Origin: Escherichia coli
Lineage (GTDB): Bacteria; Pseudomonadota; Gammaproteobacteria; Enterobacterales; Enterobacteriaceae
DNA: 64,000 nt
Assembly (NCBI RefSeq): GCF_016026235.1
Contig: NZ_CP065613.1
Strand: one strand, 5' to 3'
Position numbers and translations under genes: made by a program. Positions 18,333 through 56,494 of the stretch are shown in pieces. Each line of letters opens with the position of its first letter. Position 1 is the first letter of the stretch. The notes under the pieces are model-generated. The model saw only the letters and a list, made by a program, of their open reading frames with translations. It made no database searches and was not told where the DNA came from.

Positions 18333-18522
18333 ATATCTGTAATCTTAATGCCGCGCTGGCGATGTTAGGAAAATTCCTGGAATTTGCTGGCATGTTATGC
18401 AATTTGCATATCAAATGGTTAATTTTTGCACAGGACTGGTGGGTTCGGAACGGACTTTCCCTTCTGAATAAAGGTCTTCGTGGTTATACTTCTGCTAATA
18501 ATTTTCTCTGAGAGCATGCATT

Positions 18523-51604: not shown

Positions 51605-51973
51605 TATAGGTCCTGGATGTTGGATTTTTTTATCCTGTTAGCGACCTTGACGAGTACCAAAAAGCGCGAAGTTCAACTATTGTTCTGTGGTGTTCTGTTG
51701 CGTGTTGACGGCAAAATTTTGCTGGCGTAACATGCGCGCACGATCACTCTAAGAGGACATTCGCCTTGGACACACCCAGTAGATACTGGCTCACTATCCT
51801 GTCATCCAGGATCAACTCCTAAGGCTATCCCTTTTTGCTGATAGCCTTAGCGGTTGTCAGCGACCTCAATTTTTCCCGTCGCGCTGAGTCAGGCTGTTTA
51901 ATGGTCTGAAACCCAATTTGTTTCTGTGTGCCCACCGAACTGTCCGATATTTTAAGCATTGGGAGTCCCGGTC

Positions 51974-52924
51974 ATGCTGAGCGCATTTCAACTGGAAAAT
52001 AACCGACTGACCCGGCTGGAAGTCGAAGAGTCACAACCCCTTGTAAATGCAGTATGGATTGATCTTGTCGAACCGGACGACGACGAGCGACTGCGCGTAC
52101 AATCTGAACTTGGCCAGAGCCTGGCAACCCGCCCGGAACTGGAAGACATCGAAGCATCGGCACGTTTCTTTGAAGACGACGACGGCCTGCATATTCACTC
52201 CTTCTTCTTCTTTGAAGATGCGGAAGATCACGCCGGTAACTCCACTGTGGCATTTACCATCCGTGATGGTCGTCTGTTTACTCTGCGTGAGCGTGAACTG
52301 CCCGCTTTTCGTCTGTATCGTATGCGTGCCCGTAGCCAGTCGATGGTAGACGGTAACGCCTACGAGCTGCTGCTGGATCTGTTCGAAACCAAAATCGAAC
52401 AGTTGGCAGATGAAATTGAAAATATCTATAGCGACCTGGAGCAGTTGAGCCGGGTGATTATGGAAGGGCATCAGGGCGATGAGTACGACGAGGCGCTCTC
52501 CACTCTGGCGGAACTGGAAGATATCGGCTGGAAAGTTCGCCTGTGTCTGATGGATACCCAGCGCGCGCTCAACTTCCTGGTGCGTAAAGCGCGTTTACCG
52601 GGTGGGCAACTGGAGCAGGCGCGTGAAATCCTGCGAGATATCGAATCCCTGCTGCCGCATAACGAATCCCTGTTCCAGAAGGTGAACTTCCTGATGCAGG
52701 CGGCGATGGGTTTTATCAACATCGAGCAGAACCGCATCATCAAAATCTTCTCGGTGGTATCCGTGGTATTCCTGCCGCCGACGCTCGTTGCTTCCAGCTA
52801 TGGGATGAACTTTGAGTTTATGCCAGAACTGAAGTGGAGTTTCGGCTACCCAGGCGCGATTATCTTTATGATCCTCGCGGGCCTGGCACCGTATCTGTAC
52901 TTTAAGCGCAAGAACTGGCTGTAA
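51974..52924 (+). CDS. corA: Mg2+/Co2+ transporter CorA
   Basis: ATG at 51974 inside track ORF 51959..52924; [20 protein letters not shown]...; GMN motif and C-terminal TM pair; 316 aa. Confidence 0.95.
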
Positions 52925-52931
52925 TATGAGT

Positions 52932-52968
52932 GCCGGATAAAGCTATTTTTTTATCCGGCTTATTTCTA
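52932..52968. terminator. bidirectional hairpin terminator (corA / downstream cassette)
   Basis: GCCGGATAAAGCTATTTTTTTATCCGGC followed by T-rich tract; sits between corA stop and the stop of the 159-aa minus-strand ORF. Confidence 0.7.
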
Positions 52969-52977
52969 AAAATTGTC

Positions 52978-53457
52978 TTATTTAAAGTCATGCGGATTGA
53001 AAACTCGCTCTATTTTATTTTCTTGTGTTAATTGATACTCAGTAAAATCGTTAATACCAATATGAGTGTTACGATAAGGGTATTCATTAATAACCATTAA
53101 GTAATTTTTCACGATGCAATTATCATTGCTCTTAATTGTCGGGAAACAGTAGAGATCTTCATACGGCCCTTCGATATATTTTTTATAGTCAGTGAAGCCA
53201 TTACCGATATCAATGACATACCAGGTATGCCAACTACCTTCTGGTAGGGGATGTTGATTTTTAATTTCATTCTGATGCTTCAGATACCAATTTATTTTAT
53301 CGCTGTCAGTCCATGGCAGATGATCAACGACCAGAAAGACTGAATTGCCAGCATCAGAGTATGTATACAAAATCTGTACAGGACGCAATGTCCATAAATT
53401 ATAGATGCAGCATAGAAGAAATAAACATAATATAATTTTCTGGAGTTTGCTTTTCAT
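52978..53457 (-). CDS. hypothetical signal-anchored/exported protein (159 aa), second gene of corA-adjacent cassette
   Basis: Track ORF; N-terminal hydrophobic segment MKSKLQKIILCLFLLCCIYNLW; start overlaps upstream ORF stop (ATGA at 53454-53457); AT-rich codon usage. Confidence 0.7.
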   Translation of the reverse strand: MKSKLQKIILCLFLLCCIYNLWTLRPVQILYTYSDAGNSVFLVVDHLPWTDSDKINWYLKHQNEIKNQHPLPEGSWHTWYVIDIGNGFTDYKKYIEGPYEDLYCFPTIKSNDNCIVKNYLMVINEYPYRNTHIGINDFTEYQLTQENKIERVFNPHDFK

Positions 53458-54308
53458 AGATAATTTTCGATTCTTTCGATAGTGTTAAAATTGGTGAAAA
53501 AAGGTTTGAAAGCAAAGTCTTTATGCCGTTGTAAAAAGAACCATATGCGAAAAAATCTATATTTGCTGTAAGTCTTGTTTTTGATATCAGTTACATCAAG
53601 ACCGAAGTGGTCCTGTGCTACAAAATGAATTGTTGCACTCCATCCTATAGCGTATTTTTGAAAACTTAAAAGAGATATTTTTTGAGCTGAAATATCATGA
53701 ACACTGATTCCTAAGCCATTAAAACTGTCCTCGAAGTCATTAAATTTATTTAGTCTTGATGAAAGTAATTTGGTTTTAATGCTTTGCAGGATAAGAGGTT
53801 GGTATCCTGTCGAGGGAGTTGAATTAATGCCATTTTCGATACATTCTTTGATTATTCGTATTGGACTATTATAACCATATTTATTTATTTTTTCATGAAA
53901 AGATAAATTTAATTGTTGGCTATGAAAATTGCTGCCATTTCCATATCTAAAATGTTCAATCAGATCTTCGATAAGTGTTTTATATTGTCCAAAAAAGGAA
54001 AGCATTTTTGCTAGTTCTTTCATTTCTGCAAATAAAATATCAGTGCATTCACGTTGTGATATTTTTGTTCCGGAACTTGAGGCACTAAAAGCAACATTAA
54101 TAGAACCTGGGCCAGGGAAATGGTATTTAATAAGTCTGTAAGGATCAACTTTTGCTGAGATATCGCTTAGGCCGAGTGAGAGAAAGTCTTGTTCTACCAT
54201 ATCACCATATTGCATATCATCAGCAGAAAAATCATCGAATAAACTAATAGTTTCGAAAAGTGTACAGGGAATATTAATTGGCGGAAGTAATATGTTATTC
54301 ATTTGCAT
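53454..54308 (-). CDS. hypothetical protein (284 aa), first gene of corA-adjacent cassette
   Basis: Track ORF MQMNNILLPPINIPCTLFETISLFDDFSADDMQYGDMVEQDF...; no TM segment or catalytic motif I can assign by eye; AT-rich. Confidence 0.7.
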   Translation of the reverse strand: MQMNNILLPPINIPCTLFETISLFDDFSADDMQYGDMVEQDFLSLGLSDISAKVDPYRLIKYHFPGPGSINVAFSASSSGTKISQRECTDILFAEMKELAKMLSFFGQYKTLIEDLIEHFRYGNGSNFHSQQLNLSFHEKINKYGYNSPIRIIKECIENGINSTPSTGYQPLILQSIKTKLLSSRLNKFNDFEDSFNGLGISVHDISAQKISLLSFQKYAIGWSATIHFVAQDHFGLDVTDIKNKTYSKYRFFRIWFFLQRHKDFAFKPFFTNFNTIERIENYL

Positions 54309-54498
54309 TTGCCTTGGTTATATTTAAGCTCAATATCAATTCGAGAACAAATGCTAGGGTAAAAAAATATTTAAAAAAGAAGTACACTTCACATTTTTTC
54401 ATTACATCTCTGAAGAGAACCTCGTTAATGATTGGTCTTGCTCATTGTTAATAACAAAATGTTGAATTTACCGATTAGGAAACTTTTTCCTACGCGGA

Positions 54499-54635
54499 TT
54501 GCCTCCAGTTCTGGCATGAACTTTGAGTTTATGCCAGAACTGAAGTGGGGCTTCGGCTACCCTGGCGCGATTATCTTTATGATCCTCGCGGGCCTGACAC
54601 CGTATCTGTACTTTAAGCGTAAGAACTGGCTGTAA
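54499..54635 (+). pseudogene. diverged duplicate of the corA 3' end (last ~45 codons + stop)
   Basis: ~137 bp alignable by eye to 52788-52924 with roughly ten mismatches; encodes ...[40 protein letters not shown]; track ORF 54432..54635 extends it to an upstream ATG. Confidence 0.85.
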
Positions 54636-54659
54636 CTATACGATGTCGCTGTGAGTAAG

Positions 54660-55046
54660 TTAGTGTGCTGACAGCGACATTTTAGCCGAGGGAATCGCAG
54701 ATAACATAATTGTTGTGAATAATATCCATGCCACGTTGAGTTGGACGCTTAATGACTCACATCTCACCCCTTCAATTGCTGCAGAGATAATAGAAAAAAG
54801 TGTCAAACCCAATGAAATCAATACAAAGTAGATTGCCTTACATCCAGTATCTCTTATTCTTTTTGCTCCAATATTGATATTTACATAGGTATTATTAATA
54901 ACCAGAATAAAACTCAAAGCCAGGTTGATATCATTCAAAGTTATTAATATTGACCATGATGTTAATGTATAGATTATGAACTGAAAGCGTGATAAACGCT
55001 CAAGCCTGGATGGGTAGAATATATTTCTGATGGATGATTTGAACAT
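54660..55046 (-). CDS. hypothetical small inner-membrane protein (128 aa); yigF position by synteny
   Basis: Track ORF with at least three hydrophobic segments; AT-rich; lies between corA region and rarD where K-12 carries yigF/yigG. Identity not verified. Confidence 0.6.
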   Translation of the reverse strand: MFKSSIRNIFYPSRLERLSRFQFIIYTLTSWSILITLNDINLALSFILVINNTYVNINIGAKRIRDTGCKAIYFVLISLGLTLFSIISAAIEGVRCESLSVQLNVAWILFTTIMLSAIPSAKMSLSAH

Positions 55047-55245
55047 TTTTACATTGTTTTATATATATAATTGTTTTGAATATATATTACCTGAATTATG
55101 TGGTTTGCATATATATATGCAATATAGCAGTCTTTGCATTGATAACTATACAGTAGTAATTTAGAGTGTGTAAGTTTTTATTGATGGGGTATATTTTAAT
55201 TAAATATAATTGAAATGTATTTTTATTCTATAAACAATATCTTGG

Positions 55246-55560
55246 GTGAATGGATTCTATATGGGAAATGGTAACTTTTGGCAGTTGTTCTTGGGTAAAG
55301 AACCTTACAGCAAAAAATCTTATTTTGTTAAGGCATGGTTATTGTGGTGGGCTATTACCATCCTTGTTCTATTTATTTTAAGCCTGACTACGACATTAAA
55401 TTTAAGAAGTATAGGTATAGGGTTAAGTTTTGGGTTTTGTCAAATTCTTGGTAGATATACGATGTCTCTAGGATGGAGTAAGTACTGGGGAGTTTTGGGG
55501 GTATTTCCTGTAACAAATATTGTTCTTTTTCTTATCTTAATTTTTTTCAAAAAAAGATAA
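55246..55560 (+). CDS. hypothetical small membrane protein (104 aa)
   Basis: Track ORF with two clear hydrophobic helices (AWLLWWAITILVLFILSL; GVLGVFPVTNIVLFLILIFF); AT-rich; followed by hairpin GGGTAGGC...GCCTACCC. Confidence 0.5.
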   Translation: MNGFYMGNGNFWQLFLGKEPYSKKSYFVKAWLLWWAITILVLFILSLTTTLNLRSIGIGLSFGFCQILGRYTMSLGWSKYWGVLGVFPVTNIVLFLILIFFKKR

Positions 55561-55606
55561 ATAAGTCAGTGGGTAGGCTCTTTAAACGGCCTACCCATGT
55601 TAATTC

Positions 55607-56494
55607 TTAACTTTTTCTACGCTGCGTATAAATCGCATCCATCACAAAAATTGCCAGCGCCACCCAAATAAAGGCGAAAGTCACCATCTTATCGGCACCC
55701 GGTTTTTCACCATAAAACGTCACAGCCAGCAGGAACATCAGCGTCGGGCCAATGTACTGGAAAAAGCCTAACGTTGAGAGACGCAAGCGCGTGGCAGCGG
55801 CGGTAAAACACAACAGCGGTACGGTAGTGACAATACCGGCGGCGATCAGCAGTAAATTCAGCGACATCGGGTTTTGCCCCATATGGCTGGTTGAGCTGTC
55901 GGCAATAGCAAACAGGTAAATTGCCGCCACGGGCAGCAGCCACATGGTTTCGATTAACATGCCGGTTTGCGCTTCAACGGCAATCTTCTTGCGTACCAGA
56001 CCGTAGAAGGCAAAACTAAATGCTAGCCCCAGCGCGATAATAGGTAGCGAACCAAAAGTCCACAGCTGGACCAACACGCCACATATCGCCAGAATCACCG
56101 CCAGCCATTGCATCCGGCGGAATCGCTCGCCGAGGAAAATCATCCCCAGCACAATGTTCACCAGCGGGTTAATAAAGTAACCAAGGCTCGCTTCCAGCAT
56201 ATGGTGATTGTTCACCGCCCAGATAAACAGTAGCCAGTTGCCACCAATCAGCACGGCAGAGACTGCCAGCATAAAAATTTTCTGTGGCGTCTGAATCAGC
56301 GTTTTTAAATAGGACCACTGGCGGCAAATGCTCATCAGCACCACCATAAAGAAAAACGACCAGATCACGCGATGCGTCAGGATTTCATCGGCGGGCACGT
56401 AGTAAATCAACTTGAAGTACGCTGGCGCTATACCCCAAATAAAATAAGCGGCAAGAGCGAGTAATACGCCCTGCCGCGTTTGTTTTGCATCCAT
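55607..56494 (-). CDS. rarD: DMT-family transporter RarD
   Basis: 295-aa ORF MDAKQTRQGVLLALAAYFIWGIAPAYFKL... Confidence 0.92.
   Translation of the reverse strand: MDAKQTRQGVLLALAAYFIWGIAPAYFKLIYYVPADEILTHRVIWSFFFMVVLMSICRQWSYLKTLIQTPQKIFMLAVSAVLIGGNWLLFIWAVNNHHMLEASLGYFINPLVNIVLGMIFLGERFRRMQWLAVILAICGVLVQLWTFGSLPIIALGLAFSFAFYGLVRKKIAVEAQTGMLIETMWLLPVAAIYLFAIADSSTSHMGQNPMSLNLLLIAAGIVTTVPLLCFTAAATRLRLSTLGFFQYIGPTLMFLLAVTFYGEKPGADKMVTFAFIWVALAIFVMDAIYTQRRKS

Follow-up and report, generated by a model that had tools for sequence, protein, structure and literature searches.

A very AT-rich spacer in the corA–rarD interval of this 64-kb stretch of Escherichia coli DNA (hereafter the window) is probably an ordinary divergent promoter spacer, in which a perfect 18-bp palindrome would be the by-product of an (AT)n repeat, the promoters would lie rightward of the palindrome, and the surrounding island would be coated by H-NS. 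The palindrome is most likely an ordinary piece of sequence and not a regulatory operator, because it is not conserved in related lineages. The spacer would be the divergent promoter region of an accessory gene pair, a YigG-like gene of 128 aa on the minus strand and a gene of 99 aa on the plus strand. Within it, the palindrome would be a lineage-specific product of a short, self-complementary (AT)n run between TTGC and GCAA, with replication slippage interconverting (AT)4, (AT)5 and (AT)6, and it would contribute at most generic AT-rich, flexible upstream DNA to the 99-aa gene. As with the yigF-yigG allele of K-12, H-NS probably covers the entire island of 33% GC and to a large extent keeps it silent. 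The result matters little for regulation and removes a false lead, in that a self-complementary dinucleotide repeat explains the palindrome and the conservation test failed. The features discussed below are listed in Table 1.

The palindrome, TTGCATATATATATGCAA, was confirmed to be perfect over 18 bp at the position reported by the initial annotation; it cannot be extended and is the longest perfect palindrome in the window. The AT-richness reported for its surroundings was likewise confirmed, as positions 55047–55245 contain 21.1% GC compared with 51.8% in the window. The spacer is embedded in a 2.7-kb AT-rich island of 33% GC, and Rfam gave no credible match for the region. The role of chance was estimated with dinucleotide-preserving shuffles. 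A palindrome of at least 18 bp arose in 1% of them when the spacer was shuffled, in 2.7% for the 2.7-kb island and in 25% for the whole window. An 18-bp palindrome is thus only weakly unexpected in a scan of 64 kb. Moreover, 10 of its 18 bases are palindromic by construction, because the (AT)5 run is self-complementary.

Table 1 Features of the corA–rarD spacer and its surroundings (positions in the window).
Feature	Position	Strand	Basis or remark
DUF943 protein gene	52978..53457	-	within the 1.56-kb module
DUF3289/YPO3983 protein gene	53454..54308	-	within the 1.56-kb module
YigG-like small membrane ORF, 128 aa	54660..55046	-	distant YigG relative; conserved; three hydrophobic segments
Divergent intergenic spacer, 214 nt, 22% GC	55047..55260		between the YigG-like ORF and the 99-aa gene
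Second tract, (TA)5	55060..55069		length differs by 2 bp among strains
Third tract, (AT)4	55080..55087		length differs by 2 bp among strains
TTGCAT-16-CATAAT, weak promoter-like site	55095..55122	-	by eye; below scan threshold; speculative
Palindrome TTGC(AT)5GCAA, arms TTGC/GCAA flanking the AT repeat	55105..55122		read from sequence
(AT)5 dinucleotide microsatellite, palindrome core	55109..55118		alleles (AT)4, (AT)5 and (AT)6 among E. coli
TTGATA-17-TAGAGT, promoter-like site	55139..55167	+	consensus scan, alignment and conservation profile; putative function
CTTACA-18-TATAGT, promoter-like site	55145..55174	-	points at the YigG-like ORF; overlaps the core block; degraded in L017
TTGATG-18-TATAAT, promoter-like site	55181..55210	+	10/12 consensus; best score
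Hypothetical membrane protein gene, 99 aa	55261..55560	+	ECs_4748 (Sakai, 'membrane protein'); EDL933_RS25375 (EDL933)
Terminator-like GC-rich hairpin (inverted repeat)	55569..55598	+	between the 99-aa gene and convergent rarD
Invariant columns, spacer left of palindrome			52% (four Escherichia lineages)
Invariant columns, palindrome	55105-55122		22% (four Escherichia lineages)
Invariant columns, core block	55139-55185		64% (four Escherichia lineages)
Invariant columns, right part of spacer			67% (four Escherichia lineages)

Conservation of the palindrome, which the initial annotation itself had put forward as a test, was not borne out: the palindrome is imperfect or absent in every other lineage with the same gene pair. 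We compared the orthologous spacers of the Escherichia-like L012 and L021, of the more distant L017–L020, of E. coli with a simpler cassette and of Pseudocitrobacter, a small sample of four Escherichia lineages and one other genus; L010 and L011, which are error-ridden E. coli assemblies, were left out. The YigG-like protein is 90% identical to that of the window in L012, 88% in L021 (P0035) and 83% in the L017–L020 lineage. At the position of the palindrome, simple-cassette E. coli read TTGTTATATCCATGCAA and the sister Escherichia lineage (L012/L021) reads TTGCTATATCTATGCAA; nothing comparable was found in the orthologous spacers of L017–L020 and Pseudocitrobacter. The L017-type spacer had no match among complete E. 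coli genomes. These alignments indicate that the perfect form of the palindrome is derived and restricted to the allele with the DUF943/DUF3289 insert. The palindrome is the fastest-evolving part of the spacer, because its fraction of invariant columns is the lowest of the spacer segments (22%); the block at 55190–55214 is 87–93% invariant. A scan of one genome per species with a profile of the 99-aa protein found only E. coli contaminants in metagenome-assembled genomes (MAGs) and one Escherichia sp. contig, and the latter breaks off 126 nt upstream of the gene and does not reach the palindrome.

The proposal of a shared regulatory region has support from geometry and conservation, since divergent ORFs under purifying selection surround the spacer and its conserved blocks contain sigma-70-like matches. 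We infer that TTGATA-17-TAGAGT is the best conserved candidate promoter of the 99-aa gene. Its TTGATA −35 and its 17-nt spacing are the same across the four Escherichia lineages, and the bases between the hexamers diverge; the L017 version, for example, has the identical −35, the 17-nt spacing, TAGGAT as −10 and differences at 5 of the 17 spacer bases. In the site with the best score, TTGATG-18-TATAAT, the −35 is poorly conserved, and the TATAAT −10 lies together with an AT-tract just upstream inside the most conserved block, 55190–55214. A −10 with an upstream AT-tract is the type of promoter described for H-NS-silenced AT-rich genes (PMC7229825). Two simple-cassette strains, SCU-172 and GF4-3, carry deletions of 10–12 bp in this block. 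The number of promoter-like matches is as expected from composition, with 7 in 1.3 kb versus 6.4 ± 2.5 in composition-matched shuffles, as counted by a consensus scan and not by PlatProm. Judged by conservation, the blocks at 55139–55185 and 55190–55214 are the most likely place of functional promoter elements. The predicted starts would put the palindrome ~50–70 bp upstream of the start site of the 99-aa gene, outside the core promoter. Studies of ECs_4748 expression should look at these two blocks, not at the palindrome. The spacer maps to 4886667–4886880 in EDL933, for which coordinate-based Cappable-seq tables have been published (PMC10469882).

The repeat at the core of the palindrome varies in length among E. 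coli. In an alignment of six strains, two carried TTGC(AT)4GCAA. Of 59 full-length carriers sampled at even intervals, 42 had a 157-nt span of AT5 length and 17 a 155-nt span; among carriers, (AT)4 makes up ~29% and (AT)6 is rare. Allele-specific queries found the AT5 sequence within one mismatch in at least 883 genomes, the AT4 sequence within one mismatch in at least 88 and a span of AT6 length in at least 4. AT4 and AT6 each occur on more than one haplotype background, and all sampled O157:H7 genomes are AT5. The variation looks like occasional slippage, not rapid switching. Because the core is (AT)4, (AT)5 or (AT)6, the spacing of the arms shifts by 2 bp. Among E. coli alleles, the core between TTGC and GCAA thus measures 8, 10 or 12 nt; in L012 it is 9 nt. 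Half-site spacing is not fixed.

These results speak against the 'symmetric operator' of the initial annotation: the spacing of the arms varies, the site is imperfect or absent elsewhere, conservation within the spacer is lowest here, and no regulator gene was found among the neighbouring annotated genes. The palindrome does resemble operators of dimeric regulators, such as CytR octamer pairs and the 18-bp ARG boxes, in its 18-bp dyad, its GC-containing outer half-sites and its AT-rich centre, and, like palindromic operators, it stands in a divergent promoter region. It differs from them in the lack of conservation across orthologous promoters, in the variable half-site spacing, and in having neither flanking CRP sites nor a cognate regulator. 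In the main E. coli allele it could in principle be a recently evolved operator of a dimeric transcription factor, for example CytR, but we consider this very improbable. CytR half-sites resemble GTTGCATT and tolerate variable spacing, with 2 bp apart preferred. The octamers TTTGCATA and ATTGCATA, in inverted orientation, each match this motif at 6/8 positions, TTTGCATT at 55133–55140 matches it at 7/8, and the AT4 allele puts the two octamers at the preferred spacing of 2 bp. In addition, the arms TTGC and GCAA are invariant in the main-allele strains inspected, three TTGCAT hexamers fall within 35 nt (55105–55139) in a window that contains this hexamer only 32 times in 64 kb, and the centre of the palindrome would lie at about −60.5 from the predicted start near 55174. 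However, L012 and AR_0077 retain just one of the three TTGCAT hexamers, L017 and Pseudocitrobacter have none of them, and the unfixed half-site spacing and the missing regulator gene count against an operator in this form too. CytR-regulated promoters require flanking tandem CRP sites, and CRP-like sites flanking the palindrome are absent. A search for TGTGA-N6-TCACA with up to 3 mismatches gave no match between 55054 and 55293, and the sole nearby CRP-like match, at 55038–55053, overlaps the start codon of the YigG-like ORF. The chance of about one in four that the whole window holds a palindrome this long weakens the case further. Action of the palindrome through structure, either as a supercoil-driven DNA cruciform or, at the RNA level, as a hairpin within a long 5′ leader on the mRNA of the YigG-like gene, is extremely improbable. 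The symmetry is perfect, the predicted fold of the putative leader RNA includes a 7-bp hairpin, and the minus-strand promoter-like site running from 55174 to 55145, with a start near 55138, would put the palindrome at about +16 to +33. The stem, however, is AU/AT-rich and weak (DNA −4.7 kcal/mol, z = −1.7; leader RNA z = −0.7), and the hairpin is not conserved and shows no compensatory pattern. Tracts of (AT)n that are known to form cruciforms in vivo are much longer.

The length polymorphism also bears on the weak minus-strand site, in which the right arm of the palindrome, TTGCAT, would serve as −35 and CATAAT (55100 to 55095) as −10, so that (AT)n would tune the promoter of the YigG-like gene; we regard this as unlikely. 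The spacer between TTGCAT and CATAAT is 14, 16 or 18 nt for AT4, AT5 or AT6, and slippage would therefore switch or tune expression between lineages. That slippage among these 14-, 16- and 18-nt spacers makes expression of the YigG-like gene heritably on, off or intermediate, depending on the E. coli lineage, is quite unlikely in its turn. The promoter geometry is readable directly in the sequence, the same tract is polymorphic in length with at least three alleles on several haplotype backgrounds, and by eye a −10-like hexamer 15–16 nt from TTGCAT is present in L012 and AR_0077 as well. A precedent comes from a contingency locus of Haemophilus influenzae, in which a (TA)n tract separates the promoters of hifA and hifB; the likeness lies in a TA/AT tract that stands in a divergent promoter spacer and is length polymorphic among strains. 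However, known contingency loci have about 9 or more dinucleotide units, far more than the 4–6 found here, and the present alleles, unlike those of hifA/hifB-type loci, appear stable within clones, as the uniform AT5 of the sampled O157:H7 genomes illustrates. The −35 hexamer matches the consensus at only 3/6 positions, the site as a whole did not reach the cut-off of the scan, and L017–L020 and Pseudocitrobacter lack the arrangement. In contrast to contingency loci, the tract lies inside a weak putative promoter only, and the two TA tracts outside any candidate promoter spacer vary likewise, which suggests neutral slippage. If true, the reading would provide a low-frequency promoter-embedded microsatellite switch in chromosomal accessory DNA of E. 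coli, a small example of microsatellite-tuned spacing.

Two further observations concern motifs of this kind. An inverted pair, ATGCAA-n-TTGCAT, with the same hexamer as the arms of the palindrome, occurs at 18397–18409 of the window. By eye, TTTGAATATATATTAC near 55075 was considered as an ArgR box and dropped: neither the length of its half-sites nor the 29-bp spacing of the repeats suits such a box, and conservation is poor over this segment.

Within the preferred reading of an ordinary divergent promoter spacer, H-NS silencing of the present allele, which the initial annotation had raised as a possibility, is plausible by analogy with K-12. The yigF/yigG region of K-12 is one of 78 'promoter islands' and was H-NS-bound in all cited ChIP-chip studies (Panyukov & Ozoline 2013, PMC3661553), and inside yigG of K-12 there is a promoter that H-NS represses (Warman et al. 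2020, PMC7229825); these papers concern horizontally acquired, AT-rich DNA. Since the present allele is equally AT-rich and the K-12 allele is H-NS-bound, it is reasonable to infer H-NS coating here. As in promoter islands, AT content is high (21–22% GC in the spacer and 33% in the 2.7-kb island, compared with 52% in the window), and the occurrence is patchy, at 26% of genomes. The two alleles share the corA–rarD slot, a similar AT-richness and a small membrane protein of the YigG family, and here too there are multiple promoter-like sites, including a −10 with a preceding AT-tract. On the other hand, the two alleles share no DNA homology, YigG has only 29% identity to the YigG-like protein, and the cassette is without yigF and has an extra divergent gene of 99 aa and the DUF3289/DUF943 insertion. 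H-NS occupancy was measured on the K-12 allele, to which this cassette is likened by position and AT-richness. The high-affinity H-NS motif TCGWTWAATT has 24 of its 168 window matches in the island, which makes up 4% of the window, and just one of them is in the spacer; this enrichment reflects AT-richness only.

Both small ORFs reported to flank the spacer exist, and the minus-strand ORF was delimited correctly; the start of the plus-strand ORF, however, is almost certainly ATG 55261 and not GTG 55246. ATG 55261 is used as the start of the 99-aa gene by PGAP and by the Sakai annotation, and cross-lineage conservation of the N-terminus of the protein begins only there. In addition, a 1-nt deletion at 55248, present in some strains, would disrupt the frame opened by GTG 55246. 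As the gene starts at ATG 55261, the spacer extends from 55047 to 55260. The YigG-like ORF matches NCBIfam NF008474 (E = 7e-6), has 29% identity to YigG by BLASTP and is uninterrupted in all lineages in which it was found. It lacks an obvious Shine-Dalgarno sequence and is unannotated in the RefSeq/PGAP and Sakai records. This 128-aa ORF is probably a real gene that has been missed, and a conserved YigG-like gene missing from RefSeq in ~1400 complete genomes is a modestly useful by-product of the analysis. The YigG-like ORF and the 99-aa gene are both under purifying selection, with dN/dS of 0.15 for the former (E. coli versus L012) and 0.24 for the latter, as against 0.03 for rarD, and both proteins have hydrophobic segments of membrane-spanning length. 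The 99-aa family is nearly confined to Escherichia, with many truncated copies. Expression data on Z5339, with low read counts in the majority of eleven conditions and an increase in LB with antibiotics (PMC4048457), were set aside, because only consecutive numbering links Z5339 to the 99-aa gene.

Over this locus the window is 100% identical to strain FDAARGOS_943. The genes in and around the slot run in the order uvrD, yigE, corA, the DUF943 gene (−), the DUF3289/YPO3983 gene (−), a 147-nt corA 3′ fragment, the 128-aa minus-strand ORF, the spacer, the 99-aa gene, rarD, yigI, pldA and recQ. This cassette is carried by 1430–1434 of 5426 complete E. coli genomes (~26%), O157:H7, O111, O103, O145 and E24377A among them, and in K-12-type genomes yigF and yigG occupy this corA–rarD site instead. 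A simpler cassette, corA–YigG-like–99-aa gene–rarD without the DUF943/DUF3289 insert, is found in a few E. coli (AR_0077, SCU-172, GF4-3) and in Pseudocitrobacter corydidari. In E. coli, the corA–rarD slot (51959–56494) thus occurs in at least three versions: yigF-yigG of the K-12 type, the YigG-like gene with the 99-aa gene (~10 genomes), and the same pair with the DUF943/DUF3289 insert (~1420 genomes). Recognition of corA–rarD as a three-state variable locus is a second modestly useful by-product.

The insert is a 1.56-kb module at the 3′ end of corA (52925–54635), and it has left a duplicated 147-nt corA 3′ fragment, 54490–54635, that is ~94% identical to 52780–52924. One study described DUF3289 as a colicin M-like type VI secretion effector for which DUF943 is the immunity protein (PMC11148199). 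The module resembles an orphan effector-immunity pair and a late addition, because it is absent from simple-cassette E. coli and from Pseudocitrobacter.

The cassette seems to be dispensable and to be decaying in part. Both small ORFs occur in many truncated versions. In E. coli AF14 (L025, NZ_OZ546925.1), an IS1 interrupts the spacer immediately rightward of the palindrome position, at the equivalent of ~55131, and in genome S56 the match begins only at ~55173 onward. The genome NZ_CP026085.1, labelled E. coli DH5alpha, has the non-K-12 cassette with the AT4 allele; it may be mislabelled, because a true K-12 derivative should have yigF-yigG. Short contigs in three MAGs labelled Collinsella, Clostridium and Alistipes (L013–L015) encode the 99-aa protein at 98–99% identity to that of E. 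coli, and these contigs are almost certainly E. coli contamination of the bins.
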